A DNA stretch of 64,000 nt from Eubacteriales bacterium (GTDB taxonomy: Bacteria > Bacillota > Clostridia > Oscillospirales > CAG-382): NCBI GenBank assembly GCA_045604705.1, contig JAZUOO010000021.1, forward strand, positions 3,410 through 67,409, written 5' to 3'. This document shows positions 2,188 through 62,712 of the stretch, piece by piece; position 1 is the first letter of the stretch; the number at the start of each line of letters is the position of its first letter. Position numbers and translations under genes: made by a program. A model generated the notes under the pieces. That model searched no databases. It saw only the letters and a program-made list of their open reading frames with translations, and had not been told where the DNA came from.

Positions 2188-3051
2188 ATGACAATGGAAC
2201 TTGAAAATGCAAAGCTTTTTGTTCGCCAGGCTGTGCGGGGAGTTTTTGGTGGGAATAAACCTATGGACATCCGTTATACCCTGCGCACTCTTGATTCAAG
2301 ATTATTTTATATAATCTCCGGAAAAGGCGAGGTAACCATAGAGGGTACCGTCTACAGCCTGTCACCGGGAAGTGTCGTTCTTTTTAAAGCAGGCACTCCC
2401 TATATGTGGAACGTCACGGAAATGCAATTTTATATAGTAAATTTTGATTATTCCGACAAATTCTCGCACGAAGCAGGCGCGTTCCATCCCATCCACGCCG
2501 AAAACTTCAATGAGTCCGAATGCTTTGACTGCGGGGAGATAACGGACGAGACCAGGCTCAATTCGCCGACAGTCCTTCGTACAACTTCAAATCTTGAACC
2601 CTTATTCAAAATGATTGCGGCGGAACACGGAGTTGGCGGAAAATACTCCCGTGAGCTTATCTCAAACGCCGCGAAAACACTAATATATGCAATTCTTCGC
2701 TATGAAAGCGAGGGACATACAACCTCCATCGAAAAGAGTGCTCCACTTGTGCGTGACATAATCAGCTTTATCGGTGAGAACATGGATGCGGATATATCTA
2801 ACAGCACTATTGCAGAAAAATTTCATTTCAATGCATCATATATAAATCGTGTGTTTAAAAAGCATACGGGCACTACTCTCCATGAATATATTATCGGAGT
2901 ACGGATAGACGCCGCTGCGGAAAAACTCAGATCCGAAAGCACATCCGTGTCTGAAATTGCAAAGCTGACAGGATTTTCTGGAGCTGTCCACTTTACCAAG
3001 GCATTCAAAAAACGAATGGGTATAAGTCCTACCGAATACAGGAATATGTGA
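2188..3051 (+). CDS. AraC-family transcriptional regulator (cupin sensor plus HTH)
   Basis: N-terminal cupin-like block (LFYIISGKGEVTIEGTVYSLSPGSVVLF). C-terminal AraC double HTH (SVSEIAKLTGFSGAVHFTKAFKKRMGISPTEYRN). Confidence 0.85.
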   Translation: MTMELENAKLFVRQAVRGVFGGNKPMDIRYTLRTLDSRLFYIISGKGEVTIEGTVYSLSPGSVVLFKAGTPYMWNVTEMQFYIVNFDYSDKFSHEAGAFHPIHAENFNESECFDCGEITDETRLNSPTVLRTTSNLEPLFKMIAAEHGVGGKYSRELISNAAKTLIYAILRYESEGHTTSIEKSAPLVRDIISFIGENMDADISNSTIAEKFHFNASYINRVFKKHTGTTLHEYIIGVRIDAAAEKLRSESTSVSEIAKLTGFSGAVHFTKAFKKRMGISPTEYRNM

Positions 3052-3263
3052 AAGTGCAAAAATGACAAGTGTATGTCACTAAAGGTCATTTACAAGTCAG
3101 GATGTCGGGTATATAATGAAACCGATGATAAATAAAAACGGAAACAAAGTCCGGAAAATAAATTTTTTGGCTATAGAAGTTTATGACTTTGATGTCGCAG
3201 ACATCAATCTTGCTTTGCAAGACCTCACAAGCTTCCGTAATCACGAAAGGAATGGTTATAATT

Positions 3264-4535
3264 ATGAAAACAAGACTTACAATAGCAATGATAGGCTGCG
3301 GAAGATTCGCAGATTTCTTTGTGCCGCTGTTTAAAGCACATCCCGAAGTGGAAAAAGTATACGTATGCGACATAAGAAGCGAAAGAGCACAAGCGTACAG
3401 CGAAAAGTTCAATGTGCCGATAATCGAGAGCTTTGAGGCAGCACTTGCAAGTACGCAGGTGAATGCAGTTGCAATCTTCACGGAAAGACAGAAGCACGGT
3501 CCCATGGTAATTGAAGCACTTAAGGCAGGTAAGCACGTCTACAGTGCAGTTCCTTGTTCTATTTCCGTTGACGAAATAAGAGAAATTGAAAGACTCGTGC
3601 GTGAAACAAGACTTACATATTCCATGGGCGAAACAGGTTATTACAGAGCTGCAACCCTATTCTGTCGTGAAAAGTTTAAAAAAGGTGAGTTCGGACAGTT
3701 TGTTTATGCCGAAGCTCAGTATAACCACGATATAAGAAACATGGAGGAAAGCTTCAAGAGCAGCGGCGGTGACAGATGGAAAGAATACGCCGGTATCCCG
3801 CCTATGTATTATCCCACACATTCAACGTCAATGATTCTTAGCTCCATGCCCGGAGTATATGCCACAAGCGTAAGAGCTCTCGGTTATGTAAGCACCGAAA
3901 GAACAGACATCTACGGTACACAGGGACAGAATCTTTACAACAATCCTTTCGGTAATACGGCGATGCTTCTGACACTTTCAAACGGCGGTATCGCAAGAGT
4001 TTCCGAAAACAGAAATGTAGGCTGGAAAGCCCCCGAAACATACATTTCACAGTTCTACGGCACAGACGGAGGTTACGAATTCTCCGTTGCAAAGCACTAT
4101 TTTGCCCATTGGGACAAAGACCGTCCCGGCAAAGTGAAAATGAGTGACGTAACGGAAGGCTTGACACCTCCCGCAGTCAACGAGCTTGTCAACACAGATT
4201 TCTCAAGAGCTATTCAGGAAATTGCCGACGGTGCAGGCTTCTTTGATTTCTCGCCCATACAGGATGGAAAGAGGCTTCCCGAATCCTTCAGAGGTCTTCA
4301 CAACGGTCACAACGGCACACATCATTACATAATAGATGACTTCTGCAAGGCGGCAGCAACCGGTAAACTCTCGCCCACAAACATCTGGGAAGTGGCAAGA
4401 TATAATATCCCCGGTCTTATCGCACATCAATCCGCACTTGAAGCGGGAGCCGTTATGACTGTGCCGGATCTCGGCGAGAAGCCCGCCGATTGGGATGTTG
4501 TAGATCCTTATGATTTTGAGTATAATCAGAAATAA
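3264..4535 (+). CDS. Gfo/Idh/MocA-family oxidoreductase (second paralogue)
   Basis: LTIAMIGCGRFADFFVPLFKAHPEVEKVYVCD Rossmann motif. Collinear similarity to the 736-1944 product. Start taken as MKTRL at 3264. Confidence 0.85.
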   Translation: MKTRLTIAMIGCGRFADFFVPLFKAHPEVEKVYVCDIRSERAQAYSEKFNVPIIESFEAALASTQVNAVAIFTERQKHGPMVIEALKAGKHVYSAVPCSISVDEIREIERLVRETRLTYSMGETGYYRAATLFCREKFKKGEFGQFVYAEAQYNHDIRNMEESFKSSGGDRWKEYAGIPPMYYPTHSTSMILSSMPGVYATSVRALGYVSTERTDIYGTQGQNLYNNPFGNTAMLLTLSNGGIARVSENRNVGWKAPETYISQFYGTDGGYEFSVAKHYFAHWDKDRPGKVKMSDVTEGLTPPAVNELVNTDFSRAIQEIADGAGFFDFSPIQDGKRLPESFRGLHNGHNGTHHYIIDDFCKAAATGKLSPTNIWEVARYNIPGLIAHQSALEAGAVMTVPDLGEKPADWDVVDPYDFEYNQK

Positions 4536-4656
4536 TTTTTCTCATATTATTTTTACAAAACAATATGGAGATGTTATGACCACATCGGATCTCGGCGAGA
4601 AGCCCACCGATTGGGATGTTATTGATCCTTATGATTTTGAATATAATCAGAAATAA
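4446..4656. repeat. Direct duplication of the last ~90 bp of the oxidoreductase gene (copies 4446-4535 and 4567-4656, offset 121 bp)
   Basis: Hand alignment gives about 79/90 identical positions. Both copies end in ...GATCCTTATGATTTTGA(G/A)TATAATCAGAAATAA. Confidence 0.9.
4576..4656 (+). CDS. Possible 26-codon micro-ORF made from the duplicated gene tail (MTTSDLGEKPTDWDVIDPYDFEYNQK)
   Basis: ATG at 4576 is preceded by GGAG (4567-4570). The ORF ends just upstream of the terminator at 4667. Translation is unproven. Confidence 0.25.
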   Translation: MTTSDLGEKPTDWDVIDPYDFEYNQK

Positions 4657-4666
4657 GTAAAAAGAG

Positions 4667-4705
4667 TCACCTTGGAGCAAGATTCCAAGGTGATTTTTGT
4701 TTTTG
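4667..4705 (+). terminator. Rho-independent terminator
   Basis: Perfect 10-bp stem TCACCTTGGA / TCCAAGGTGA with a 7-nt loop, followed by TTTTTGTTTTT. Confidence 0.75.
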
Positions 4706-4894
4706 GTGTGGTGGTTGTAGGTGTTTGTTAATGGTATTGGTTTACATCCTCGGAGGTTTTGTATAAGTGCAAGCATTATTCTTTCGGCACGGAGTGCGGG
4801 GTAGTGACACCCTGAATATCTAATTCCAAATTTGCAGGTACACAATAAATTTTTAATTATGAATTCTAATTTCCTTTAACTGTACACCGCTAAG

Positions 4895-5476
4895 TTATCC
4901 GTCTTTTAGCTCCTTAATGGTGTGGATCTTTTTATTGTCATCCTCGATATATTTGATAATGTCATCGAGATTTTCCGTTATCCTGTAAAGCTCAAGACAA
5001 TTTTCTTTGATAAAATTTTTCCCAATGACCTGCTTCATAACCTCATGTAAACTGTCATAATAATTCATAATATTATAGACCGCAATAGGCTTGTTATGCC
5101 GACAAAGCTGTTTGAGTGTCAATATTTCAAAGAATTCCTCATAAGTTCCTATGCCGCCGGGAACGACTATGAATGCATCCGCATTATCCTCCATTATCTG
5201 TTTCCTTTGACGCATGGTTTCCGGCATTATAAGCTCGTTACAGAAATCGCATATTTCCTCAACGGTTTCTTCTTTGAAAAATTGGGGGATGACTCCGAAG
5301 ATATATCCGTTGCCGCGTCTGAAACCTCGTGCCGCCGCCCCCATAAGTCCGTTACCGCCGCCGCCGAACACAAGGGAATGACCTCTCTTGGCAAGTATTT
5401 CTCCCATGTCCTCGACTATTCTCATATATTCCTTGTCAATTGTCGGAGAAGCTGCTCCGTATACGCATATTCTCAT
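4895..5476 (-). CDS. LOG-family protein (TIGR00730-type nucleotide phosphoribohydrolase)
   Basis: GGGGNGLMG and PGGIGTYEE motifs, which are diagnostic of the LOG/lysine-decarboxylase-like family. Confidence 0.85.
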   Translation of the reverse strand: MRICVYGAASPTIDKEYMRIVEDMGEILAKRGHSLVFGGGGNGLMGAAARGFRRGNGYIFGVIPQFFKEETVEEICDFCNELIMPETMRQRKQIMEDNADAFIVVPGGIGTYEEFFEILTLKQLCRHNKPIAVYNIMNYYDSLHEVMKQVIGKNFIKENCLELYRITENLDDIIKYIEDDNKKIHTIKELKDG

Positions 5477-5677
5477 GATTTTACTCCTTTAATAAGCACT
5501 TTGTTTAATGTTATTATACATGAAAATTTTCCTGTTGTAAAGAGGGACTTTTAAATAAATGTCCGTTTTTCGAGAGAATTACCGGATATTACGTAAAATT
5601 CTTATGTGTGTCTAAATGACTTTTTAATAAAAAAATTCAAATTTATGTGTTTCTATATTTTTGATTGCATATAACGG

Positions 5678-5706
5678 TTGCATTTTGTGTAAAAGTATGA
5701 TATAAT
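5678..5706 (+). promoter_or_regulatory. Candidate promoter for the SPFH operon
   Basis: TTGCAT, 17-nt spacer, TATAAT, about 120 nt upstream of the ATG at 5825. Confidence 0.45.
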
Positions 5707-5824
5707 GATTCTGTAAAAAATAAATCTGTACCTTTTGTACAATGTATCGACAAAATATACTCAAAATAGCGAAAACGGCATAACTCAAATATAAAGCCGT
5801 CACAACGGCAGAACGGAGACTACT

Positions 5825-7207
5825 ATGGGACTTATTAAAGCAGGCCTCGGCGCACTCGGCGGTGCACTTGCAGATCAGTGGAAGGAGTTTTTCTACTGTG
5901 ACTCACTTGAAAATGATGTACTTATGGTAAAGGGACAAAAGCAAATAAGCGGACGTTCCTCAAATACAAAAGGAAACGATAATATTATCTCGAACGGATC
6001 GGGAATTGCTGTAGCCGATGGTCAGGCAATGATGATAGTAGATCAGGGCAAGGTAGTGGAGTTCTGTGCAGAGCCCGGTGAATTTACATATGACTCTTCA
6101 ACTGAACCGAGCATCTTTGCGGGAAGCCTGGGTAAAAGTATCCTTGATACTTTCAAGACCATAGGTAAACGCTTTACATACGGTGGAGATACCGGTAAGG
6201 ATCAGAGAATTTACTACTTTAACACAAAGGAGATTATGGGTAACCGTTACGGTACCGCAACACCCATTCCTTTCAGAGTTGTGGTAAACGAACAGCTCGG
6301 CTTCAAGCTTTCCGTGGATATAAGATGCAACGGTGAATATACATATAAAATGGTAAATCCCATGCTGTTTTATACAAGCATTGCGGGAAATGTTTCTGAT
6401 GAATACAGGAAGGAAAATCTTGAGGACATTCTAAGAAGCGAGCTCTTATCCGCACTTCAGCCGGCACTTGCAAAGGTAGCAGCGCAGAAGATTGAATACT
6501 TTGAGCTTCCCGCACACACAACCGAGATAAGAAACGCTCTTTGCGAGGTTCTTCGCCCGGACTGGACTGAAACAAGAGGTATTGAAATTGTAAAACTCAC
6601 AATTAATTCTCTCTCTATTCCCGATGATCAGAGAAAGAAGATTACAGAATGGGAAGAAACCGCAATGACCACAAATCCCAATGTCGCAGGTGCAAGACTT
6701 GTAGGTGGACAGACCGATGCAATGAGAACCGCGGCAGCTAACGAAGCAGGTGCAATGACAGGCTTTATGGGGATGGGAATGGCAATGAATACTGGTGGTG
6801 CAAACGCACAGCAGTTCTATGCAATGGGGCAGCAGCAAGCACAGGCAGCACACGATTCCGACAGTTGGAAATGCTCATGCGGAGCTGTGGCAAAAGGAAA
6901 ATTCTGCTCGTCCTGCGGTGCAAAAAGACCTGAGCCTGCAGTTGACGGTTGGAAATGTTCCTGTGGCACAACGGTAACAGGAAAATTCTGTCCCGAATGC
7001 GGAGCGAAGAAGCCTGAGGATGGCTGGAAATGCTCATGCGGTGCGGTGAATAAAGGCAAATTCTGTTCCGAGTGCGGTGAAAAGAAGCCTGCAGGTGCTC
7101 CGTTATACCGCTGTGATAAATGCGGCTGGAAACCGGATGATCCGAAGAATCCTCCGAAATTCTGCCCCGAATGCGGAGACATATTTGACGAAAATGACGC
7201 AGATTAA
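5825..7207 (+). CDS. SPFH/band-7-like protein (YdjI-like) with four C-terminal zinc ribbons
   Basis: The N-terminus MGLIKAGLGALGGALADQWKEFF is typical of YdjI-like SPFH proteins. The C-terminus has repeated WKCSCG..GKFC.ECG.KKP units. Confidence 0.8.
   Translation: MGLIKAGLGALGGALADQWKEFFYCDSLENDVLMVKGQKQISGRSSNTKGNDNIISNGSGIAVADGQAMMIVDQGKVVEFCAEPGEFTYDSSTEPSIFAGSLGKSILDTFKTIGKRFTYGGDTGKDQRIYYFNTKEIMGNRYGTATPIPFRVVVNEQLGFKLSVDIRCNGEYTYKMVNPMLFYTSIAGNVSDEYRKENLEDILRSELLSALQPALAKVAAQKIEYFELPAHTTEIRNALCEVLRPDWTETRGIEIVKLTINSLSIPDDQRKKITEWEETAMTTNPNVAGARLVGGQTDAMRTAAANEAGAMTGFMGMGMAMNTGGANAQQFYAMGQQQAQAAHDSDSWKCSCGAVAKGKFCSSCGAKRPEPAVDGWKCSCGTTVTGKFCPECGAKKPEDGWKCSCGAVNKGKFCSECGEKKPAGAPLYRCDKCGWKPDDPKNPPKFCPECGDIFDENDAD
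6866..7185 (+). repeat. In-frame tandem zinc-ribbon coding repeats (3 near-identical units plus 1 divergent)
   Basis: WKCSCGAVAKGKFCSSCGAKRP / WKCSCGTTVTGKFCPECGAKKP / WKCSCGAVNKGKFCSECGEKKP / RCDKCG..FCPECG. Confidence 0.85.
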
Positions 7208-11848: not shown

Positions 11849-13066
11849 TCAATACTCTCTCTGACAGTCTACCTTGAACACTCTGTAATCCGGAATATTG
11901 TCACACTTGGTAAATACTTCTCTGAACGCCTGCAGGTGTCCAAAGCCGTAGCCGTAGTTGGGGAACAAGAAGTGACCCTCCGACCACTCATTCCAGTTGT
12001 CAAGCACAAAATGTTTTCTTCCGATGCTGTCCTTTGGAAGTGTGTCAATAAGCTCCTTTGCTCCAACAAGCAGACGCTTCCATTGCTCAGGTGTCAGCTC
12101 CCACTCCCATATGCCCTTTACCGGGTCAAGACCGAATATCTTGTGCCAGGGGCCTCTTGACCACATTACGCTTGCTGTGTACATAAAGAATTCAGGATAT
12201 TTTTCTATTCTGTTCTTTATGCATTCAAGCTGATAATCTACGATAATATCTCCGGGAATCTTGAGCGTTTTTAGATAGTCCTCCTGCTGCTGTTTTGACA
12301 GTAAATCCTTGTTGTAGTGCCAGCAGTACTGATGAGCGAAGTCATATCCTTTAGAAATCATATTCTCGGTATAAGAAAATTCTTCGGTACCGTGCTCTGC
12401 CTGATAGGAAATGTTGCTCTTGTTCCAGCCGTTATCCATACAGCCTATCATTATGCCGGGGAAGCCGTACTTCTTTATTTCCTCGTGCATAACGGACAAG
12501 GCTTCTTTCGTCTTTTCGTGTCCTCCGAGAGCTTTTTCGAGATTATCTTGCGAATAAATATAAAGCACGGGCTTGCCGTCTATCTTTTGATATGTGGGGA
12601 GCTTGAAATAATTCTCAACCCAGAAAGGCATGAGATTGTCCGTGATGTCCGCAATATCTGTGGCAGCACCCCATTTTTCGTCACATTCCCACATGATTGC
12701 AAAGTCCATATAATCTCTGTAGCGGCAGTTGAAATATGCCTCGTGGATTGCGTGATTAAATCTGAGGTTTTTCACGGTGACGGGTTTTCCGCGATTGTCG
12801 CTGTAACGGTACCAGCAGTGAATAAAACAGTTGATACCGTGCTCAACAGCCCACTTTATTTGCCAGTCCATGACAACAGGGTCTGATTCATCGTAATAAC
12901 CTATAATCGGTGTTCTTTCGGGGAACGTTCTTAAATCCTCAAAGCCGTTGTGGATGTCTGCGGCTCCCTTTTTCCAGCCCGGATAATAGTGGCAGGCGAC
13001 ATAATAATCACTTTTTACGGGTTTGGGTACGGGAACATAACTTTCAATTCTGTTCATCTTTTGCAC
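11849..13066 (-). CDS. GH99-like / WbsX-like glycoside-hydrolase-fold protein (assignment tentative)
   Basis: Pattern HYYPGW..PER.P.IGYYDESDP.V.DWQIKWAVEHGINCFIHCWY resembles the WbsX/GH99-like family, recalled from memory. No signal peptide. Confidence 0.55.
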   Translation of the reverse strand: MQKMNRIESYVPVPKPVKSDYYVACHYYPGWKKGAADIHNGFEDLRTFPERTPIIGYYDESDPVVMDWQIKWAVEHGINCFIHCWYRYSDNRGKPVTVKNLRFNHAIHEAYFNCRYRDYMDFAIMWECDEKWGAATDIADITDNLMPFWVENYFKLPTYQKIDGKPVLYIYSQDNLEKALGGHEKTKEALSVMHEEIKKYGFPGIMIGCMDNGWNKSNISYQAEHGTEEFSYTENMISKGYDFAHQYCWHYNKDLLSKQQQEDYLKTLKIPGDIIVDYQLECIKNRIEKYPEFFMYTASVMWSRGPWHKIFGLDPVKGIWEWELTPEQWKRLLVGAKELIDTLPKDSIGRKHFVLDNWNEWSEGHFLFPNYGYGFGHLQAFREVFTKCDNIPDYRVFKVDCQREY

Positions 13067-13280
13067 TCCTTTATATATAATTATTAATATTTCCGCAAGG
13101 AAACACCATAGCGAGCAGACATAAGTTCCATTCAGTGATTGTCGCTGCTCACATTTTTCCTTTTAGAAAAAAAGTATTGCATTTTTGTAACATCTGTATT
13201 ATAATTGTAAAAAAGAGCAAAAAGGTATAAAAAAAGCTACAGATTTTATAAAATCAGCTACAGATGAAAGGTGATTTGTA

Positions 13281-14087
13281 TTGGAACAAGTGAATATTGA
13301 CAGACTCACAGGATTTTACTACCACAAATTCAACGAAGGCTACACTTTTGAAGGTCACACCCACTCCGCATGGGAGATAAACATAATAACAGCCGGCAAA
13401 ATGAGCGTAACCTACGGCGACAGTGTAATGACCCTCTCAGAGGGCGACTTTTTCGTTGGTGAACCATGGGGCTTTCACTGTAACCGTGCCATTGGTAAGG
13501 ACGCTGAAATGGCGGTGATTCATTTTGAAAACACAGACGCCTCTACGGGGAACCGGAACGGCTATTCGGTAAGGACGCTTACGCAGGACGAATTCTCCAT
13601 AGCCCGTCTTATGCTTGCAGAGCTTTTGCGCCGAAGATATGATGACGGAGCACTGGGTGAGGACACCCGCGAGGAATACACCAACGCCCGTAAGCTGTGC
13701 GAGGTTCTCGTATCAAGAGTTATGGGAGCGAGCAAGATAGAACTTGAAAACAGTTCTCCGAAGGTCATTCTGTACAGAGCAGCCGTAGAATACATGGAAA
13801 AAAACATCGGTGAAAAGCTGTCCATTGAGAAAATATCGAAGCATCTCCACATATCCCCCGCATTTCTGAAAAGTATCTTTCTTGAATTTACCGGCGGTGG
13901 GGTAATAAGCTACTTTACGCAAATGAAAATCCGCCTTGCAAAAAAAATGCTTGAACGCGGCAAAAGCATCTCTATAGTCAGCGATACTCTGGGCTTTTCA
14001 TCCCAATGCTATTTCTCATCTGTTTTCGGCAAAATTGTGGGCGACACTCCTAAAAATTATCAAAAATGTCATTCCTCAAAGGAATAA
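13281..14087 (+). CDS. AraC-family transcriptional regulator
   Basis: Cupin-like N-terminus (HTHSAWEINIITAGKMSV) and a C-terminal AraC HTH (SIVSDTLGFSSQCYFSSVFGKIVGDTPKNY). TTG start as given in the ORF track. Confidence 0.8.
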   Translation: MEQVNIDRLTGFYYHKFNEGYTFEGHTHSAWEINIITAGKMSVTYGDSVMTLSEGDFFVGEPWGFHCNRAIGKDAEMAVIHFENTDASTGNRNGYSVRTLTQDEFSIARLMLAELLRRRYDDGALGEDTREEYTNARKLCEVLVSRVMGASKIELENSSPKVILYRAAVEYMEKNIGEKLSIEKISKHLHISPAFLKSIFLEFTGGGVISYFTQMKIRLAKKMLERGKSISIVSDTLGFSSQCYFSSVFGKIVGDTPKNYQKCHSSKE

Positions 14088-53772: not shown

Positions 53773-54669
53773 TCAGAATTTTTCCGTGCCGTCCTCACCG
53801 TTGCGATACTTTACCGGCGAAACTCCCGTCATCTTCTTAAAAGTCTTTCCGAAATGGGGAATATCGGTAAATCCCGTGGAAAAAGCTATCTCGCGTACGG
53901 ATATATTGCTTGAGCGCAACAGCTCCATTGCCATATTTATCCTGTAATTGACGATAAAGGCATGAATGGAGGTTCCCGAGTTTTTTTTGAATATCCTGTT
54001 CATATAGACCGGGTTCATATAAAAGGTCTGAGCAAGGCTCTCGTAGGAAATATCCTTGTCGTAATTGCTCTGGATATATTGAATAATGCTTCTTGTAAGT
54101 ACAAGTTCGCGATTGCTCTCATCGTCTCGTGTAATGTTTTTTTCGCGAATGATACTTATGATTACCGATTTGAGAATACTTGACAAAAGCTCATCGAGAC
54201 AATAATCGTTTACGACGTTGAATTCTGTGGTCATAAGCCGAAGTCTTGACTCCACCGAAACAAGATTTTCAATAACAATGGGGCTGCCCAGAATATCGCT
54301 GTCGGTAAAATAATGCTTTTCAAGAATATCATTCTCGGTGAACTTGTCCGAATGCATCGGATGAAAGGGCTTTACTATATGCTTGAAGTTGTGAGTGCAG
54401 TCAAAATTAAGAGCAATAAAATCTATCGCCACATCGCCCATGGGCTGCCATACATATTTTGTGCCTGCGCGGAACATCAGTGTACATCCGGGAGAAAGAC
54501 GGTATGTTACACCCTCGATGGTCATACTGCCTTTGCCGGAGATAATATAAAACAACCTGCAGTCCGAGCTCTGAAGCTCAAAAAACACATCTTCTTTTGT
54601 ATTGCAGCTGATATTTGTGACTATCGCCTGGCGAACAAAGGGACACAATTCCTCAAGCGTCATGTCCAT
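53773..54669 (-). CDS. AraC-family regulator, divergent from the GRE cluster
   Basis: Cupin-like N-terminus (RLFYIISGKGSMTIEGVTYRLSPG) and AraC HTH (SVREIAFSTGFTDIPHFGKTFKKMTGVSPVKYRN). Confidence 0.8.
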   Translation of the reverse strand: MDMTLEELCPFVRQAIVTNISCNTKEDVFFELQSSDCRLFYIISGKGSMTIEGVTYRLSPGCTLMFRAGTKYVWQPMGDVAIDFIALNFDCTHNFKHIVKPFHPMHSDKFTENDILEKHYFTDSDILGSPIVIENLVSVESRLRLMTTEFNVVNDYCLDELLSSILKSVIISIIREKNITRDDESNRELVLTRSIIQYIQSNYDKDISYESLAQTFYMNPVYMNRIFKKNSGTSIHAFIVNYRINMAMELLRSSNISVREIAFSTGFTDIPHFGKTFKKMTGVSPVKYRNGEDGTEKF

Positions 54670-54900
54670 ACTCCTTTCAATATCAATTTTACACATAGCT
54701 ATATAATTTTATGGTAACACATAAAAAAAGAATTGTCAATGGAATTTCGGGGATTTTTTTGTGTTTTCAAAAGAAGTTTTATGCATCTTAAAGTATGAAA
54801 AACACAATTCCAAGTTTCGATTCTACATTTACATAAACACTGCATGAATATATAATGAAAGTGTAAAGTAAGAATCATATTCCCCGAAAGGAGTCTGCAA

Positions 54901-55800
54901 ATGAAAACATACATTACGGATATTCAGCGTTTTTCTCTGCGTGACGGTGACGGAATAAGAACCTCCGTATTTTTTAAAGGCTGCAATATGAGCTGTCCCT
55001 GGTGTCACAATCCCGAAACATTAAAATCAGAGCCCGAGCTTATTTTCTATGCGACCAAATGTATAGGCTGCGGAAAATGCTTTGAGGTATGCCCGAATAA
55101 TGCCCATAAAATTGTCGGCGATAACCACATTGTAGACAAAACCCTTTGCACAAGCTGCGGTAAGTGTGTGGATGTCTGCTATGCGGGTGCTCTGAAAATG
55201 TGCGGCAAGGAAATGACCGTTGAAGAAATAATGAAAGAAGTCCGTCAGGACATTCCCTACTACAAGAACAGCGGCGGCGGTGTAACTCTTACCGGCGGTG
55301 AAGTTTTGTGCAACAAAGATTTTGCGATAGCTCTTGCCAAGGAGTGCCGCAAGGAAAATATAAGCGTTGCAATAGAATCCAACATAAGCTTTCCGTGGGA
55401 TTATTCAAAGGAACTGTTTGAACTCTGTGACCTTATTATGTGCGATATAAAAATATTTGACGATGCAAAGCACAAGGAAATGACGGGAATCTCAAATAAG
55501 AATGTCCTTGAAAACATAAAAATGCTTGATACCCTGGGCAAACCCGTAATCGTAAGAACTCCTCTTATTCCGGGAGCTACCGACGGCATGGAGAATCTTA
55601 TTGCAATTGCTTGTTACATAAAAGATTTAAAGAACCTTGTAAGATACGAAATACTTAACTTTAATCCGTTGGGTGAGGGTAAATACAAAGGACTTGACAA
55701 GGAAAACAAATACATTGATGCACGTCCGGAGAAGAACGATAAGCTCGAAGCAATACTTGCACAGCTTTCAAAAACAGGCGTTACCGTCAAAATAATATAA
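54901..55800 (+). CDS. Glycyl-radical-enzyme activating enzyme (radical SAM with two auxiliary ferredoxin-like clusters)
   Basis: CNMSCPWCHNPE (CX3CX2C), plus CIGCGKCFEVCP and CTSCGKCVDVC. Confidence 0.9.
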   Translation: MKTYITDIQRFSLRDGDGIRTSVFFKGCNMSCPWCHNPETLKSEPELIFYATKCIGCGKCFEVCPNNAHKIVGDNHIVDKTLCTSCGKCVDVCYAGALKMCGKEMTVEEIMKEVRQDIPYYKNSGGGVTLTGGEVLCNKDFAIALAKECRKENISVAIESNISFPWDYSKELFELCDLIMCDIKIFDDAKHKEMTGISNKNVLENIKMLDTLGKPVIVRTPLIPGATDGMENLIAIACYIKDLKNLVRYEILNFNPLGEGKYKGLDKENKYIDARPEKNDKLEAILAQLSKTGVTVKII

Positions 55801-55816
55801 GAGAGGAGAGACTGCA

Positions 55817-58024
55817 ATGAGCGAAATAAAATATATAGGCTGTTTCCCGACGGAAGAAAAATTCGACTATGATAAACGCATAGAGCTTTTACGCAAGCGT
55901 AAGGTACAGCAAACCGAAGAAAAAGCAAGAAACGGCGGTGCAAACGAGGACGATTACGGACTTATTGTCCAGAACGAATTCTCATACAAATTAAAGCCCA
56001 ACCATGAAAACGGTTCAATCTACGGCTACAAGGCGTGGACGGAAAACTACTGTGCCATTCTTGACAGTCATCCACTCTATTGTGATGCACTTGACGCATT
56101 TGTTGGTAAAGGCTTCCTGTTTCTTGAAAGACTAAGACCCGTTACCTGCAAATGGAATCCGGCATATCCCTTTGATGATTTGAAAGTGCTTTTTGATAAG
56201 TATAATATAATTTCAGGCATAGATAACTGCCATCATTTTACACCGGATTTGCAGATAGGCTTAGACCTGGGCTGGGGCGGTATTCTTAAAAAGCTTCTTG
56301 AATACAGAGAAAAGCACGATGAAACGCACCATGAATTCTATGACAGCGAGATTGCGGTTGTTGAAGCGATAATAAGATTCCTTAAAAGGTGTTCTGCGGA
56401 AATATACGAGCTTGCGGAAAAGGAAAACAATCCTTATCTTAAAGAGAATCTTCTGCAAATGGCAAAGGTGAACGAAAACACCGCGGAAAATCCACCGAAA
56501 ACATTCCGTGAAGCGGTACAATGGATGTGCTGGTTCAGTATGCTCTCCCGTACCTATAACAGAGGAAGTGCAGGCGGTCAGCTTGACGAGATGCTTCGTC
56601 CCTACTACGAGAGGGACATAGAAAAAGGTATACTTACCGATGATGAAGCGGTATTCTACCTTGCTTGCCTGTTCCTACAGGATTCAAGATATTTCCAGCT
56701 TGCAGGCCCTGATGAGAACGGTAAGGACATGACATCGAAAATATCCTATCTCTGTCTTGAAGCGGCAGATAAGATAAACATTGCCTGCAACCTCACAATA
56801 AGAGTTCATGACGGAATTGATAAGGAATTCTTCAGAAAATCTGTTGAATACCTCTTTAAAAATAAGCAGGGTTGGCCGAGATATTCCTCCGATAGTGCCC
56901 TTGCACAAGGCTTTATGAAGTGCGGGTATCCCCTTGAGCTTGCAAGAAAAAGAGTTGCGGCAGGTTGTCATTGGATGTGCATTCCCGGTATGGAGTATAC
57001 CATGAACGATACCGTAAAGATAAATCTTGCAAAGGTATTTGAGGTTGCCTACTATGAAATGATGGAAAAGGACAGCGAACCGAGTGCACAGAAGCTCTTT
57101 GAAAGATATAAAGTACATCTCAAAGCCGCAGTTGATGCTACCGGTAACGGTATAATGCACCACCTGAAATATCAGACAAAATCGCAACCGGAGCTTATAC
57201 TCAATCTTTTCCAGCACGGACTTATCGAAAAAGGCGTAAATATCACAGACGGCGGCGCAAACTACTACAATATGTGCGTTGACGGCAGCGGTATCGCAGT
57301 TGTGGCAGACAGCTTTGCGGCACTTCAGCAGCGAATAGATACCGAAAAGAAGCTGACATACAGAGAGCTCACTGACCATATGCAAAGTAACTACGAGGAT
57401 AAGGATGGCGAATACATAAGACTTCTTATGCAAAACAGTGAGCGTTATTGTGGCGGAGACACCATCGGAGACAAATGGGCAAAGAAAATAAGTGATCTTT
57501 ACACATCACTTGTCCGTGATCTAAATAATCAGCACCCCGGTATAAACTTCATCCCCGGCTTCTTCTCCTGGTCAAACACAATAGGACTCGGTCAGACAGT
57601 TTCCGCAACACCCAACGGCAGAAAGAACTATGAAGCCATAAACCATGGTGCAAATCCAAACGGTGGCTTCCGACATGACGGTGCGGTATCCGCAATGTGT
57701 AACTCCATCGGAGCAATTCAACCCGGTTACGGCAACTGTGCACCTGTACAGCTTGAATTCGACCCCGGAATAGTAAACGATGCCGAGGGTATAGACAAAA
57801 TGGCGGCGATGATAAAGACCATTATGGACACGGGAAATACACTTCTCAATATCAACATAATTGATGCAAAGAAAATCATCGAAGCCCACAAAGATCCTTT
57901 CAAGTACCCCGATCTCGTTGTAAGAGTAACAGGTTTTACGGCATTTTTCGCAATGCTCTCACCGGAGTTCAGACAGCTTGTTGTTGACAGGGTAACGTCG
58001 GTAAACCCGGAACTGAGTAAATAA
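55817..58024 (+). CDS. Glycyl radical enzyme (PFL2/dehydratase-like clade) with an atypical thiyl loop
   Basis: C-terminal glycyl motif VVRVTG706FTAFF. The Cys loop AAGC384HW lies 322 residues upstream, where characterised dehydratases/lyases of this clade carry G-C-x-E. 735 aa. Confidence 0.88.
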   Translation: MSEIKYIGCFPTEEKFDYDKRIELLRKRKVQQTEEKARNGGANEDDYGLIVQNEFSYKLKPNHENGSIYGYKAWTENYCAILDSHPLYCDALDAFVGKGFLFLERLRPVTCKWNPAYPFDDLKVLFDKYNIISGIDNCHHFTPDLQIGLDLGWGGILKKLLEYREKHDETHHEFYDSEIAVVEAIIRFLKRCSAEIYELAEKENNPYLKENLLQMAKVNENTAENPPKTFREAVQWMCWFSMLSRTYNRGSAGGQLDEMLRPYYERDIEKGILTDDEAVFYLACLFLQDSRYFQLAGPDENGKDMTSKISYLCLEAADKINIACNLTIRVHDGIDKEFFRKSVEYLFKNKQGWPRYSSDSALAQGFMKCGYPLELARKRVAAGCHWMCIPGMEYTMNDTVKINLAKVFEVAYYEMMEKDSEPSAQKLFERYKVHLKAAVDATGNGIMHHLKYQTKSQPELILNLFQHGLIEKGVNITDGGANYYNMCVDGSGIAVVADSFAALQQRIDTEKKLTYRELTDHMQSNYEDKDGEYIRLLMQNSERYCGGDTIGDKWAKKISDLYTSLVRDLNNQHPGINFIPGFFSWSNTIGLGQTVSATPNGRKNYEAINHGANPNGGFRHDGAVSAMCNSIGAIQPGYGNCAPVQLEFDPGIVNDAEGIDKMAAMIKTIMDTGNTLLNINIIDAKKIIEAHKDPFKYPDLVVRVTGFTAFFAMLSPEFRQLVVDRVTSVNPELSK

Positions 58025-58146
58025 ATTGAGGATATTCTTGCGAAAGCCCATCACCGGATGCCGTAAGAAAAAAGAAATCATTATCATTAACAACACAAAA
58101 CTTCAAACCAAATGAAAGAATAAAATTCAAACAAAGGAGACCACCC

Positions 58147-58923
58147 ATGAACGTAGTAATGGAAAAAGTAGACACATCCGTAAAAGGAAACCGTTCTGTA
58201 GAGCTTTGTAAGGGCGAGATTCCCGGTGCACATCCCGTACATCACACAATAGAAACGGGAAGTACCCTTACCTTTGAAGCAAACTGCGGATATTATCACA
58301 TCATAATCCTCATTGAGGGCAGTGCAAAATTTGAAACCGACGGTAAAGAATACAACTTCGACGGCAGAACAACCTTTGTACCTGCCCCCGATAAAGAGCT
58401 TTCGGTTTTCGCAAAAACAGGTGTACAGATTCTTGAAATTCAGTGGGACGAAGCTCCCGGTGATGAAGAAGACCTCAAGGAATACAAAACGGAATTTCCC
58501 GTGGTTGTTCCTTATCAGGAGTCTATTCAGTACATCGACCCCAATAAGAGCGAAAAGACTATCAGCCGCATGATGATCCCTCACGAAGTTCTTCCCAGAT
58601 TTACAATCGGCTCTGTTGAATCCTACGGCTACGACCTGGTTCGTCCGCATGCACATCCCATGCTTGACCAGTTCTTCTTCAGCTTCCCGGAAAATGATAT
58701 GGAAGTAATTATTGACGATGAAAAGATTAACATGAAAGGAAACATCATAATGCATATTCCGCTTGGCTCCAACCACGGTGTTGAAGTAACAGGCGACAGA
58801 CATATGCACTATATGTGGATAGACTTCATGCCGGACAAGGAAGCGGGACTCAAACGCCTCAACTTCAGCCACAGACCTACGGGAACAGTCCGTGACTTTG
58901 CCAATGAAGACAAAACAAGATGA
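58147..58923 (+). CDS. Bicupin/cupin-domain protein
   Basis: RPHAHPMLDQFFF..IIMHIPLGSNHGVEV has a cupin metal-site pattern. There is an N-terminal second beta-barrel-like half. Confidence 0.6.
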   Translation: MNVVMEKVDTSVKGNRSVELCKGEIPGAHPVHHTIETGSTLTFEANCGYYHIIILIEGSAKFETDGKEYNFDGRTTFVPAPDKELSVFAKTGVQILEIQWDEAPGDEEDLKEYKTEFPVVVPYQESIQYIDPNKSEKTISRMMIPHEVLPRFTIGSVESYGYDLVRPHAHPMLDQFFFSFPENDMEVIIDDEKINMKGNIIMHIPLGSNHGVEVTGDRHMHYMWIDFMPDKEAGLKRLNFSHRPTGTVRDFANEDKTR

Positions 58924-59969
58924 ATATAAACCTTAAAAAACCTATAAAACTTCAAAGAGCAGGAGCATGGAGAACATATCTCGGCGGAAAGCTGATAGAA
59001 GAGCTTCACGGAAATGGTAATGCCTGTGACACCAACTTCCCCGAGGAGTGGATAATGTCAACCGTTACTGCCCGAAACAGCGGCAGAGAACACATAGTCG
59101 AGGGACTATCTATGATAGAGGGTACGGATATTTCCCTGAAACAGTTGATAGATGAGAATCCCGAACAATGCCTTGGAAAAGCCCATTTTGAAAAATACGG
59201 AGCGACTCCCGGTGTGCTCGTAAAGCTGCTTGATTCCGCTGAAAGACTTACAATTCAGGTACATCCTACCCGTGAAAATGCCAAGCTGCTATTCAACTCC
59301 GATTTTGGCAAAACCGAATGCTGGCACATTGTTGCGGGACGCGAAATAAACGGTGAAAAGCCCTGCATTTACTTCGGTTTTAAAGAGGGTATAACCCGCA
59401 AGAGGTGGAAAGAAATATTTGACACGCAGAATATCCCTGAAATGCTTGATTGTCTGCACAAATTTGAAGTAAATCCCGGTGATACATTTCTTATTGAGGG
59501 CGGTATTCCGCATGCAATAGGCTCCGGATGTTTTCTCGTTGAGATACAAGAGCCTACCGATTACACAATAAGAACGGAAAAGACTACGCCATCGGGAAGA
59601 GAAGTTTCCGACTTCATGTGTCATCAGGGGCTTGGTTTTGAGAAAATGTTAGACTGCTTTGACTACACGGGCTATTCCAAGGAAGAAACTGCGAAAAGAT
59701 GGCGTATAAAGCCAAAGGGTGAAGCGCTGATAGACTACGAAAATACAAAAATGTTCCGTCTTTTTGAGCTTAACATAAACGGCACAAAGACTATATCCTC
59801 AAAGGGTACTTTCAGTGGACTATATGTGCTTGACGGTGAAGGAGAGATAGACGGAACAAAAGTCAAAAAAGGCGCCCAATATTTTATCACGTCAGTGTGT
59901 GAACCATTTAATATAAACGGTAATATGCGAATTATCAGATACTTTGGGCCACAAGTCTTACCTAAGTAG
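58920..59969 (+). CDS. Type I phosphomannose-isomerase-like protein
   Basis: LTIQVHP, KTECWHIV and GIPHAIGSGCFLVEIQEPTD match class I PMI zinc-site blocks. Confidence 0.7.
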   Translation: MNINLKKPIKLQRAGAWRTYLGGKLIEELHGNGNACDTNFPEEWIMSTVTARNSGREHIVEGLSMIEGTDISLKQLIDENPEQCLGKAHFEKYGATPGVLVKLLDSAERLTIQVHPTRENAKLLFNSDFGKTECWHIVAGREINGEKPCIYFGFKEGITRKRWKEIFDTQNIPEMLDCLHKFEVNPGDTFLIEGGIPHAIGSGCFLVEIQEPTDYTIRTEKTTPSGREVSDFMCHQGLGFEKMLDCFDYTGYSKEETAKRWRIKPKGEALIDYENTKMFRLFELNINGTKTISSKGTFSGLYVLDGEGEIDGTKVKKGAQYFITSVCEPFNINGNMRIIRYFGPQVLPK

Positions 59970-59992
59970 AACTTATTTAAAAGGAGAAACCA

Positions 59993-60790
59993 ATGAAGTA
60001 CGGATTTTGCAAAGAATTTTCCACCCCACTAAAAACCGAGGTGGACTATGACCTTATAAAAATGATAAAAGACGCAGGCTTTGACTACGTTGAAATGCGT
60101 GCAATGCTTGTATCATCCCTTTCCGATGAGGAATTCGACAAGCTCTGCAAAACACTTTGTGACCTTGATCTTGCCTGCGACTGCTGCTGTGCACTCTTCC
60201 CGAAAACAATAAGAGTCACCGGCAAGGACAGAAACCTCGACGAAATAAAGGCATATCTTGAAAAAACATTCCAAAGATGCACAAAGCTCGGAGCAAAAAA
60301 GGTAGTATTCGGAAGTGCACCCGCAAGAGCTTTGGACGAAAGCACATCAATTGAAGAGGGCTATTCCCATATCGACGAGGTAATAAAGGAAGCAATTATT
60401 CCCATGTGCGAAAAATACGACATCACTGTAGTAATGGAGCCTCTGCGTGCGGATGCCTGCAACTTCATCAATACCCTTTCCGACGGTTACAGAGTTGTAA
60501 AGGAAGCAAATCATCCCCAAATTGCACTTCTTGCGGATACAATCCACATGATGTCAAACAACGACAATGCCGATGACATCATAAAATACAAAGACGCCCT
60601 CCGTCACATCCACATAGCCGAGCTTCAAAGAGTAATGCCGGAGGATAATTACAGCGACTACATAAACACCGTTATGGACAATCTTCGTGCAATAAAATAT
60701 GATGGTACAATATCCTTTGAATCCAAAAACGGTAACGGCCTTGAGAGCATGAAAAAGGCCCTTGCACTATTAAAAAAACAATTTATATAA
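59993..60790 (+). CDS. Sugar-phosphate isomerase/epimerase (xylose-isomerase-like TIM barrel)
   Basis: The size, the ..VVFGSAP.. and ..VVMEPL.. strands, and DTIHM..HIHIAE metal-ligand-type motifs are typical of the AP_endonuc_2 family. Confidence 0.7.
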   Translation: MKYGFCKEFSTPLKTEVDYDLIKMIKDAGFDYVEMRAMLVSSLSDEEFDKLCKTLCDLDLACDCCCALFPKTIRVTGKDRNLDEIKAYLEKTFQRCTKLGAKKVVFGSAPARALDESTSIEEGYSHIDEVIKEAIIPMCEKYDITVVMEPLRADACNFINTLSDGYRVVKEANHPQIALLADTIHMMSNNDNADDIIKYKDALRHIHIAELQRVMPEDNYSDYINTVMDNLRAIKYDGTISFESKNGNGLESMKKALALLKKQFI

Positions 60791-60808
60791 TACAAGGAGA
60801 ACAGAAAA

Positions 60809-61819
60809 ATGGCAATAAAAACAGCAGTAATCGGCTGCGGCAGAACAGCCAACGATCTTCACGCACCCGTACTTGAAAAGCACCCCGAATTTGAAGTAAC
60901 AGCAATATGCGACGTAAACACGGAAGCTCTCGATAAGTTCTCTCAGAGATTCCCGAACGCAAAGAAGTACACCGACTACCACACAATGCTGAACAGTCCC
61001 GATTTCGACTTTGCAATAATTCTTACTTTCAGCTATACACATACGGCAATTGCACTTGACTTTATAAGAGCCGGCAAAAATGTTCTTATCACAAAGCCCT
61101 GGGCAATCACAACAGATGAGGCTGATTCCATAATAAGCGAAGCGACAAAGAATAATGTTATCGTCATGCCCTTTATCCCCTGCCACGACGGTGCAGACGT
61201 TGTAAAGCTCAAGGAAGTAATCGCAAGCGGTGCTATCGGCAAGGTGTTCAGAGTATACAGAGCACAGATGACCTTCGGCAAAAGAAGCGACTGGCAGACA
61301 CTCAAGGCTTATGCGGGTGGTTATCTTAACAACTGGGGACCTCATATCGTTGAACAGGCAATGTGTCTTGTAGGCGAAAAGTTCAAGACCGTTTACGCTC
61401 ATAAGAGACAGATAATCAACCCCGGAGATGCAGACGATATGTTCTGCTCGATGATGACGAGCGAAAGCGGAGTTATAGTTCAGGTAGACCACAACATCAT
61501 CTCCGATTATCTCCCCAATTGGGTGGTACAGGGCGATAAGGGTACAATTTACGTCAAGGGCAATCAAATGGAAATTCACGAAATTTCCTATCCCCAAGCC
61601 GATGATCCTACAGTATACAGAAGCACAACCGAAACAAAAAAGACCAACATCACTCTCGAGGGTAAAATTTTCGGTGACCACTATTCCATCTACACGATGA
61701 TAGCTGAAACTCTCAAAGGTAAGCCCTATATTGTAACACTCGACTATGCACGACATCTGACAGAGATTATGCAGGCAATTCACACCTCTGCAGATGAGGG
61801 TAGACTTGTAGAACTTTAA
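60809..61819 (+). CDS. Gfo/Idh/MocA-family oxidoreductase
   Basis: MAIKTAVIGCGRTANDLHAPVL Rossmann N-terminus. C-terminal alpha/beta dimerisation domain. Confidence 0.85.
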   Translation: MAIKTAVIGCGRTANDLHAPVLEKHPEFEVTAICDVNTEALDKFSQRFPNAKKYTDYHTMLNSPDFDFAIILTFSYTHTAIALDFIRAGKNVLITKPWAITTDEADSIISEATKNNVIVMPFIPCHDGADVVKLKEVIASGAIGKVFRVYRAQMTFGKRSDWQTLKAYAGGYLNNWGPHIVEQAMCLVGEKFKTVYAHKRQIINPGDADDMFCSMMTSESGVIVQVDHNIISDYLPNWVVQGDKGTIYVKGNQMEIHEISYPQADDPTVYRSTTETKKTNITLEGKIFGDHYSIYTMIAETLKGKPYIVTLDYARHLTEIMQAIHTSADEGRLVEL

Positions 61820-62025
61820 TAAGAATACATAAACACATAACCGGTATCAAAAGATAAAACGTAAGCATATAAGTTCAATTCAACCTTCTCACTTACCGTA
61901 GAGATTATGTTTGTATATCCTCCACAGTAAAAACAAATAATAAAACAAAAGGCAGGTCTCTGAACAAAGACTTGCCTTAAAATTTTATCTGTATAACTTT
62001 TGATATAAAATTCTCACATCAAAGC

Positions 62026-62712
62026 TTATTCATCTGTACCCGCGCCGTCAAATCCGTCGCTTTCACCGTTTTCGCTCTTTGAGAACCAGAATGAGTAAAT
62101 CCTGCCTTTGCCGACATAAAATTCAAGCTTGATAACCTTACCCTCAAGAGAAGCCAAGTCGAAGTCACCGAAATCAAGCTCGGCCTTTGTGCTGTCACCG
62201 CACCAGGGCTTGCTCTTGCAAAGCACCTTTCCGTTCTCATTCTTGATTTCAACGGTGATACAGCCGTTATTTTCGGTTTGTGCATTAATAAAGAAATAAG
62301 ATCTCTTGCCCTTGAATGTGAGTTTTCTTGTCCTTATAAATCCGTCATTTTCAACTCCCAATGAAGCAAAACCGTCACGGCTTGTGGCATAAGCCATCTT
62401 GTGAAGCCAGCCCGCTTCATACCACATCTTATATATTTTTTCGTCTCTGTCAAACCACATGCCGCCGTCCTTGGGGACCGCACACGGAAGTTTTTCGTAT
62501 TTTTCCATCGGAGTTTCCGGGAACATTACGGGATTTCCTTCATATTTTTTAGGCTGATGGAAGACCTTGTAAAGATTATGAGACTCAACAAGAAAATCAT
62601 CCACAAAAAGCTGTCTGCCTACGGAAATATCAATAACCTTTGGGGGATTTTTAAGATAAGGAACAGGCATTCCCTGCTTAAGATCATCCATCGTATATTT
62701 GGGATGCCACAC
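62026..62712 (-). CDS. Hypothetical glycoside-hydrolase-like protein, possibly internally deleted
   Basis: The N-terminus GRQLFVDDFLVE..YEGNPV..YKMWYEAG..MAYATSRDG looks like the first blade of a beta-propeller GH. It then runs straight into a beta-sandwich-like tail (GCITVEIKNENGK..KLEFYVGKGRIYSFWF). Confidence 0.45.
   Translation of the reverse strand: MWHPKYTMDDLKQGMPVPYLKNPPKVIDISVGRQLFVDDFLVESHNLYKVFHQPKKYEGNPVMFPETPMEKYEKLPCAVPKDGGMWFDRDEKIYKMWYEAGWLHKMAYATSRDGFASLGVENDGFIRTRKLTFKGKRSYFFINAQTENNGCITVEIKNENGKVLCKSKPWCGDSTKAELDFGDFDLASLEGKVIKLEFYVGKGRIYSFWFSKSENGESDGFDGAGTDE

Follow-up and report, generated by a model that had tools for sequence, protein, structure and literature searches.

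How does an oxygen-sensitive glycyl radical enzyme (GRE) work when a tryptophan takes the place of the glutamate that its relatives use in catalysis, and on what kind of compound does it act? The question is raised by positions 53773-61819 of a 64,000-nucleotide stretch of contig JAZUOO010000021.1 from an Eubacteriales bacterium (the window, meaning here that whole stretch), where a 735-aa GRE is encoded with an activase, two cupin proteins, a xylose-isomerase-like TIM (triosephosphate isomerase) barrel and a Gfo/Idh/MocA oxidoreductase. Our sequence analysis suggests that this GRE, in which C-x-E is replaced by C-x-W, is an uncharacterised subfamily variant within the GRE superfamily, and it is very likely an active enzyme of that subfamily working on a carbohydrate-derived small molecule. 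A large, monophyletic and widespread clade has swapped the catalytic Glu for Trp while keeping the leaving-group acid, and from this combination of loss and retention it follows that either the base has moved elsewhere or the radical mechanism is another one.

The glycyl motif RVTG706F, C384 and the 322 residues that separate C384 from G706 are all present as the initial annotation had read them. That annotation had proposed alignment to characterised GREs as the check on its loop assignment, and in HMMER alignments to all four solved enzymes (PflD, 8yjo; CutC, 9f3w; HpsG, 6lon; glycerol dehydratase, 1r8w) the G-C384-H-W386 of our protein sits under G-C-x-E, which identifies Cys384 as the predicted thiyl cysteine, outside any C-x-E context, and shows by alignment that Trp386 occupies the position of the catalytic Glu. 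The protein is 18-22% identical to every solved GRE, and an AlphaFold2 (AF2) model of the whole chain (pLDDT 86.8) reaches a TM score of ~0.8 to whole-chain GRE structures (PflD, glycerol dehydratase, CutC and propanediol dehydratase). By alignment, His164 and Asp447 of glycerol dehydratase (GD) correspond to His140 and Asp398, Glu435 to Trp386 and Tyr640 to a Phe; Arg249 lies in the strand aligned to GD His281/Ser282, and the GD segment around Tyr339 (GGYPMYQ) is deleted, explaining part of the shorter length of the C-x-W protein. In GREs the catalytic cysteine lies on a Cys loop that faces the Gly loop within a ten-stranded barrel. In GD the substrate hydroxyl loses its proton to Glu435 and the leaving hydroxyl receives one from His164, and C-x-E is conserved in each of the six C-O eliminases, in CutC, in the C-S lyases and in the three isomerases (PMC13450708, a 2026 review). 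Since Glu435 has become Trp386 and His164 is retained as His140, the C-x-W GRE has lost the base side of this dyad and kept the acid side.

The Cys loop of the family follows the motif G-C-[H/S/N]-W-M-[C/S], in which Trp and Met are fixed and His385 and Cys388 are variable. All 64 full-length members taken from genome contigs have the loop G-C-[H/S]-W-M-[C/S]-[I/M]-P-G and the Gly loop RVTGF, and Asn is found at Cys+1 in further members. Invariant in the 64 are H140, Q235, R249, Y292, Q294, C384, W386, M387, E393, Y394, N397, D398, F583, S584 and W585; H140, W386, E393, Y394 and D398 are also invariant in the clade at 37-54% identity, and at the Glu393 position E or Q predominates throughout the wider C-x-W tier. 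The G-C-H-W loop to which the initial annotation drew attention therefore stands as far as its Cys and Trp are concerned, but not as a signature that includes the His, which is Ser or Asn in relatives and for that reason was rejected as a replacement base. A two-cysteine mechanism through Cys384 and Cys388 was likewise rejected, Cys388 being Ser in part of the family; because both positions vary, neither His385 nor a second cysteine can be an essential replacement.

More than 120 GRE clusters at 76-92% identity, all of 730-744 aa, carry the database name 'formate acetyltransferase' and no other. A HMMER scan of 1.84 billion cluster representatives showed a gap in score: about a dozen full-length 50% clusters stand above it, with 38-54% identity and 510-870 bits, and the rest lie at ~30% or less. 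A motif scan recovered 567 relatives in GTDB species genomes. The Cys loops of the 94 nearest full-length 50%-identity cluster representatives, as counted in a tree that includes three E. coli anchors, are C-x-W in 25 cases, C-x-E in 61 and of other types in 12. In this tree (FastTree, no bootstraps, rooted on E. coli PflB and drawn from the nearest 150 representatives) all 25 C-x-W sequences form a single clade with an SH-like (Shimodaira-Hasegawa) support of 99, and the E. coli proteins PflD and YbiW group with the C-x-E sequences. All NCBIfam GRE equivalogs score 186-229 bits against cut-offs of 1000-1109. The C-x-W GRE is thus not assigned to the C-x-E eliminases or isomerases, because the defining Glu is absent, the equivalog thresholds are not reached and the protein lies outside their part of the tree, which agrees with its original description as uncharacterised. 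A literature search whose coverage excluded most subscription journals found no published characterisation of a C-x-W GRE, nor of a GRE tied to cupins or sugar acids. Searches for related loci found none with P0152 (of the GC-F-W-Y subclade) as query and one true relative (L072) with P0145, the other matches of the latter being C-x-E or other non-C-x-W GREs.

The genome from which the window comes (1.87 Mb, 96.5% complete) encodes five PFL-like (pyruvate formate-lyase-like) GREs, the others lying at G000:C3, C43, C39 and C44 (loci L180-L183; for example L180:4833-7007). A second atypical GRE among them has 724 aa, the loop N-G-C-N-Q and the Gly loop RVGGY, and is encoded near an AraC gene; the remaining ones are an 836-aa protein of C-x-E eliminase type, a 743-aa protein that is probably a PFL and one of C-W-E type truncated by the end of its contig.

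The genes around the C-x-W GRE were all found where the initial annotation had placed them, by the open reading frame (ORF) map and by Pfam and NCBIfam profile scans in which equivalog cut-offs served as thresholds. Together with the loops of the GRE and the putative signals, they are as follows.

53773..54696, minus strand: divergent AraC-family regulator of 307 aa with an N-terminal cupin-type sensor (Pfam HTH_18 1.6e-20, HTH_AraC, weak Cupin_2)
54828..54856, plus strand: promoter-like site of the operon, TTTACA-17-TATAAT, 11/12 matches (consensus scan, pattern match only)
54901..55800, plus strand: GRE-activating radical SAM (S-adenosylmethionine) enzyme of 299 aa with two auxiliary ferredoxin-type clusters (TIGR02494 335 bits, cut-off 174)
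55817..58024, plus strand: GRE of the C-x-W clade, 735 aa (PFL-like 3.4e-97, Gly_radical 4.8e-14)
56963..56989, plus strand: predicted Cys loop of the GRE, G383-C384-H-W386-M-C-I-P-G391 (alignment to the G-C-x-E of solved GREs)
57923..57937, plus strand: glycyl radical loop of the GRE, R703-V-T-G706-F (Gly_radical domain; RVTGF invariant in 64 members)
58147..58923, plus strand: bicupin of 258 aa (weak Pfam cupin matches only; AF2 fold)
58920..59969, plus strand: metal-dependent cupin isomerase of 349 aa resembling type I phosphomannose isomerase (PMI) (Pfam PMI_typeI_cat and MPI_cupin_dom)
59993..60790, plus strand: xylose-isomerase-like TIM barrel of 265 aa, of ketose 3-epimerase or keto-sugar epimerase type (PF01261 2.1e-28)
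60809..61819, plus strand: Gfo/Idh/MocA NAD(P)-dependent sugar oxidoreductase of 336 aa (PF01408 1.2e-22, PF22725 3.1e-19, PF02894 3.1e-12)
61949..61978, plus strand: terminator-like hairpin of 11 pairs with a T-rich tail, 3' of the last gene (consensus scan, pattern match only)

The promoter-like site of the operon ends 45 bp 5' of the activase start, and a site for the AraC regulator lies divergent from it at 54739-54711 (likewise a pattern match from the consensus scan only). These sites and the terminator-like hairpin, as pattern matches, appear to frame a six-gene operon. The gap between the GRE and bicupin genes (58025-58146) measures 122 bp and a simple consensus scan found no terminator-like site within it; elsewhere in the operon neighbouring genes overlap or are at most 23 bp apart. 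Directly downstream of the operon, on the minus strand, a 228-aa ORF (62026-62712) has no Pfam match. The activase contains one CX3CX2C motif (C28/32/35) and two CX2CX2CX3C motifs (C54-64, C83-93), bearing out the two auxiliary clusters attributed to it. We read 53773-61819 as an AraC-controlled six-gene catabolic operon, and its partner set recurs across genomes.

Two scans of GTDB species genomes yielded 128 distinct full-length loci. The operon arrangement recurs in 88 distinct loci and is therefore not due to chance. The activase adjoins the GRE both in loci whose GRE has at least 58% identity (76/80) and in those below 58% (32/35), whereas the remaining partners stop at this limit: a bicupin adjoins the GRE in 76 of 78 loci above it and in 0/29 below, a PMI-like gene lies within 3 kb in 64/71 and 0/26, and a TIM barrel and a Gfo oxidoreductase occur in 44 of the 53 loci that have enough flank and in 0/20, respectively. 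The link to sugar-type enzymes that had been noticed in the window alone is thus conserved, and the co-occurrence boundary at 58% GRE identity makes the operon part of a family that is sharply bounded and probably isofunctional. In close loci an AraC homolog is encoded divergently from the activase, and in two loci (L116, L134) the bicupin is found upstream of the activase rather than 3' of the GRE. In 20 loci the TIM barrel (N-terminal) and the Gfo/Idh/MocA protein (C-terminal) are fused into one protein of ~630-645 aa, encoded directly upstream of the activase (L039:7148-9085, L138:5195-7087 and 18 further loci), showing that the pair acts together and belongs to the module.

Nearly all hosts are Clostridia that have not been cultured and come from the guts of goat, sheep, yak, buffalo, deer and humans on a fibre diet; Spirochaetales, Lentisphaeria, Victivallales, Kiritimatiellae and Verrucomicrobia occur as well. 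One cultured strain, Oligosphaera ethanolica DSM 24202, has the complete module (L138:5195-12914), with a GntR regulator before it and an esterase after it, and such a carrier makes the question directly testable. Because the GRE sits in a tightly conserved pathway module that occurs in Clostridia of rumen and hindgut and in further anaerobes living in fibre-fed hosts, the module probably marks an unrecognised carbohydrate or sugar-acid fermentation route.

A sister clade of GREs (50-56% identity; loop GCNWMS/A) occurs in Bacteroidota, Planctomycetota and some Firmicutes and is without cupins. In eight of its loci a conserved ~140-aa protein without a Pfam match is encoded directly 3' of the GRE (among them L157:10172-10600, L161:10140-10553, L164:10168-10593 and L173:7581-8033), and comparison ruled it out as a relative of the bicupin. 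Sister-clade neighbours include GH47, GH92, GH115, GH43, SusC/D and RhaT-like genes, and GREs of this clade are found in the cultured organisms Flammeovirga pacifica, Flammeovirga sp. SJP92, Labilibaculum filiforme, Neglectibacter timonensis and Hominenteromicrobium mulieris.

What the partner proteins might do can be judged in part from their metal sites and folds, and both cupin proteins have intact predicted metal sites. In the bicupin the C-terminal cupin carries the signature H168-x-H170, D174/Q175, E182 and P-L-G-x-x-H210 (alignment A1), and the invariant linker Q-Y-x-D-x-x-K-S-x-K-T-I-S-R supplies the basic residues K134, K137 and R141. Its AF2 model (pLDDT 92.9) matches DR1152, YlbA, ureidoglycine aminohydrolase and the IolB-like 2qjv (Z 20.2) at Z ~20-22 and KduI (9kcz) at Z 17.1. 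A sequence search against the PDB gave no match for the bicupin, hhalign against E. coli KduI gave no signal (probability <1%) and Pfam PF04962 was not matched; no family but KduI is named among its neighbours in the atlas (score 0.90, a lead only). In the PMI-like protein Q113, H115, E133 and H198 are retained by all 26 homologs compared and have counterparts in alignments to 1qwr and 1zx5, and the TIGR00218 score of 93 bits lies under the ManA equivalog cut-off of 116. The closest solved relatives of the TIM barrel are tagatose 3-epimerase, TM0416 and 3-keto-D-glucoside 4-epimerase, and its weak NCBIfam matches to IolO and psicose 3-epimerase reach no equivalog cut-off. Those of the oxidoreductase are the uncharacterised Gfo/Idh/MocA structures 3e18 and 3i23, together with DgpA2.

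Clues to the substrate come from the genes beyond this core, which are variable (283 clusters among 414 ORFs). A Pfam tally of the 183 non-core neighbours of 30 dereplicated loci comprises ATP-binding cassette (ABC) permeases (12), AraC regulators (11), tripartite ATP-independent periplasmic (TRAP) systems (4), PF12831 flavoproteins (5), extra TIM barrels (5), extra Gfo enzymes (4), Glucosamine_iso (3), 2-hydroxyacid dehydrogenases (2), AEC, MFS, EamA and MatE carriers (2 each), UxaC (1) and UxuA (1), the last being found in 6 loci of the wider set. No glycoside hydrolase and no kinase is among the top 25 families of this tally, which fits an imported, unphosphorylated monomer. TRAP systems stand directly beside the module in L042, L043, L054 and L124. 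For the substrate-binding protein (SBP) of L042 (6411-7493) the nearest structures are 4x8r and 4n8y, binders of glucuronate and galacturonate (PMC11668362), and it is also near the hexuronate binders 4n15 and 4mhf (PMC7660916). The binders of L054 and L124 (the latter at 12316-13314) are closest to 4p1e, 4n6k, 2hpg and 4o8m. In L124 (Oscillospiraceae) UxuA and TRAP membrane-component genes (DctM/DctQ) lie upstream of the module (2181-6111) and a complete TRAP system downstream (L124:12316-15249). The window's own genome encodes UxaC and a KDPG-type (2-keto-3-deoxy-6-phosphogluconate) aldolase. The TRAP, AEC and ABC transporters and UxuA lean towards an imported sugar acid. The idea of a sugar-derived substrate, with which the initial annotation had ended, is therefore upheld by the conserved sugar-type partners, but the transporters and neighbours lean away from the neutral hexose, polyol or anhydro-sugar that it had envisaged.

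Two further types of protein recur near the module. A ~400-aa PF12831 'FAD dependent oxidoreductase' is encoded there in ~10 loci (for example L042:15755-16951, L037:17783-18997, L053:7992-9260 and L023:1712-2917), and esterase-type proteins of ~490 aa (PF00144, beta-lactamase/family VIII esterase) lie directly upstream of the activase in ~9 loci (for example L005:7590-9074 and L002:4285-5754). Oligosphaera has a 621-aa hydrolase with weak acetyl-xylan-esterase and glucuronoyl-esterase matches (L138:12971-14836). Such recurring esterases may mean that the substrate arrives as an ester or lactone.

In the pathway that we favour, the activase installs a radical on Gly706 of the GRE, and the substrate would be a sugar-derived monomer that is imported and not phosphorylated, most likely an acid of hexuronate or aldonate type or a keto derivative of one. 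The thiyl radical of Cys384 would abstract hydrogen from a ring or chain carbon of this compound, and an oxygen substituent on the neighbouring carbon would leave with acid help from His140 and Asp398. A Glu base would be dispensable if the radical carbon carried an ether or acetal oxygen next to a carboxylate; alternatively, the base role would be taken by the substrate carboxylate or by a relocated residue (the invariant Glu393, or the Arg249 region). Trp386 would pack or stack against the sugar. Return of the hydrogen would give a deoxy-keto acid, which the two metal cupins would isomerise, and the oxidoreductase/epimerase pair would adjust redox state and configuration to reach a standard intermediate, e.g. 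a 2-keto-3-deoxy acid. The whole chain, from imported sugar acid through acid-assisted C-O cleavage to cupin and oxidoreductase processing, seems to us about evenly balanced between right and wrong. Several points weigh against it: the window's own cluster is without a transporter; transporters vary by locus, CUT1-type ABC systems being as common as TRAP, which occurs in only ~4/30 loci; phospho-sugar enzymes are present in a few loci (Glucosamine_iso in three, a class II aldolase in one); the similarity of the TRAP SBP (~100-140 bits) is too low to fix a ligand; and the bicupin shows no sequence relationship to KduI by hhalign (<1%), its fold matches being generic. The roles in space given to Trp386, Glu393 and Arg249 are putative, and the bond cleaved and the substrate are presumed from sequence and gene context.

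A bolder version, to which we attach little credence, is that the C-x-W clade forms a new mechanistic GRE class that catalyses base-independent radical C-O cleavage at an ether- or acetal-bearing carbon next to a carboxylate. An enzyme of this class might, for instance, be a methanol-lyase or dehydratase that attacks C4/C5 of a hexuronate, xylan-derived 4-O-methyl-glucuronate being one such compound, and yields a 4-deoxy-5-keto-uronate, which the KduI-like bicupin and the PMI-like cupin would isomerise in the direction of 2-keto-3-deoxygluconate. Hints in this direction are the herbivore and fibre-diet gut sources, the uronate-type TRAP binders, the Oligosphaera esterase and the GH115 gene beside a sister-clade GRE. 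If true, it would fill a gap in the anaerobic breakdown of a major sugar acid of plant fibre in the guts of herbivores.

The retained acid side of the active site can also be read in other ways. A conventional GRE 1,2-eliminase (dehydratase) whose substrate is a neutral sugar, polyol or cyclitol (inositol/inosose) and whose base has moved, e.g. to Glu393, with the Gfo and TIM proteins making or consuming a keto-cyclitol or keto-sugar, would be in keeping with the conservation of His140 and Asp398 (GD His164 and Asp447) and of Glu393 (invariant in the clade and mostly E/Q across the wider tier), with a Gfo protein that scores weakly IolG-like and a TIM barrel that is IolO- or IolI-like, with the extra Gfo/Idh/MocA genes of many loci, as in inositol clusters, and with the frequency of CUT1 ABC transporters. 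We nevertheless consider it unlikely, given that TRAP and AEC transporters and UxuA indicate anions, that no IolD, IolE, IolC or IolJ-type genes recur among the 183 neighbours and that Glu393, judging from strand alternation, probably faces away from Asp398. Less likely still is a PflD/YbiW-like isomerase that opens the ring of an unphosphorylated anhydro-sugar (1,5-anhydroglucitol, 1,5-anhydromannitol or 1,5-anhydrofructose), in which case the Gfo protein would be an anhydrofructose reductase or dehydrogenase and the PMI-like cupin would interconvert manno and fructo configurations. PflD is the best match in sequence and fold, a PMI-like partner is present, 1,5-anhydrofructose reductase is a Gfo/Idh/MocA enzyme, and the lack of kinase and phosphotransferase system (PTS) genes would suit an unphosphorylated substrate. 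Ether cleavage would moreover justify radical chemistry (PMC13450708), but the Cys+2 Glu that PflD and YbiW need for C2-OH deprotonation (PMC13450708) is absent. PflD and YbiW also lie far outside the C-x-W clade in the tree, NF007437 scores 229 bits against a cut-off of 1109, no 1-deoxy-ketose aldolase recurs and the TRAP SBPs resemble uronate/aldonate binders.

An anionic substrate, as the gene context suggests, would also be compatible with a radical decarboxylase of a sugar acid, e.g. converting a hexuronate to a pentose-type product, whose pentose or pentulose the cupins and the epimerase would isomerise. A hydroxyl-deprotonating Glu would be unnecessary for this, the TIM barrel resembles ribulose, psicose and tagatose 3-epimerases, and GRE decarboxylases are an established class (PMC13450708); known members, however, are ~870-900 aa long and distant (1e-22 to 1e-40), the leaving-group acid His140 is kept here and no pentose kinase or pentose-pathway genes recur among the 183 neighbours, so that we find it quite improbable. 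The database name of the homologs, 'formate acetyltransferase', would suggest a PFL-type keto-acid C-C lyase, but the loop G-C-H-W-M-C holds no Cys-Cys pair, as against C-C-V-S in E. coli PflB, TIGR01255 scores 59 bits with a cut-off of 994 and no genes for CoA-handling partners recur in the same set of neighbours. A catalytically dead relic is incompatible with the invariance of both radical loops and with a dedicated activase adjacent in 76/80 loci; either of these two explanations is scarcely credible.

The sugar-acid pathway that we favour can finally be set beside known systems. The nearest are PflD and YbiW, the GRE isomerases of 'anhydroglycolysis' that act as C-O lyases on 1,5-anhydromannitol-6-phosphate and 1,5-anhydroglucitol-6-phosphate (8yjo, 8id0, 8id7). 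They provide the best sequence match (1.4e-54) and the best fold match (TM 0.81-0.82) and share with our enzyme a likely carbohydrate-type substrate, an activase of the same subfamily with two auxiliary clusters and the active-site His and Asp equivalents, but identity is only ~20-22%, Trp stands in place of the Cys+2 Glu and the C-x-W protein is 30-75 residues shorter. Unlike the E. coli loci, which contain a PTS and FsaA, the 183 neighbours include no PTS, kinase or recurrent aldolase, and two cupins, a TIM barrel and a Gfo protein are found instead. The B12-independent glycerol and 1,2-propanediol dehydratases (1r8w, 5i2g, 9rco) resemble the GRE in whole-chain fold (TM ~0.8) and in the residues matched to His140 and Asp398; they differ in having Glu435 where it has Trp386, Tyr640 where it has Phe and the Tyr339 segment that it has lost, and the microcompartment and aldehyde dehydrogenase context of these dehydratases is missing here.

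Among the partners, the Gfo/Idh/MocA 3-dehydrogenase and xylose-isomerase-like TIM barrel form the same pair as in YcjS/YcjR- and DgpA-type modules (relatives 6wn6, 9m37 and 7xr9), but similarity is low (E 1e-11 to 1e-19) and no equivalog threshold is reached; to our knowledge, no such keto-sugar module includes a GRE. The likeness to modules of C-glycoside and anhydro-sugar catabolism that the initial annotation drew is an analogy. The PMI-like protein has the catalytic domain, the cupin domain and the Gln-His-Glu-His metal tetrad in common with type I PMI (B. subtilis type, 1qwr; 1zx5), differs from it in falling below the TIGR00218 cut-off and, with no kinase nearby, need not act on a sugar phosphate. 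The bicupin keto-deoxy-uronate isomerases KduI and IolB (9kcz, 2qjv) are matched or exceeded in score against the window's bicupin by DR1152, YlbA and the ureidoglycine aminohydrolase bicupins, but they share with it a bicupin fold of the same size (Z 17-20), which would suit a deoxy-keto sugar-acid product.

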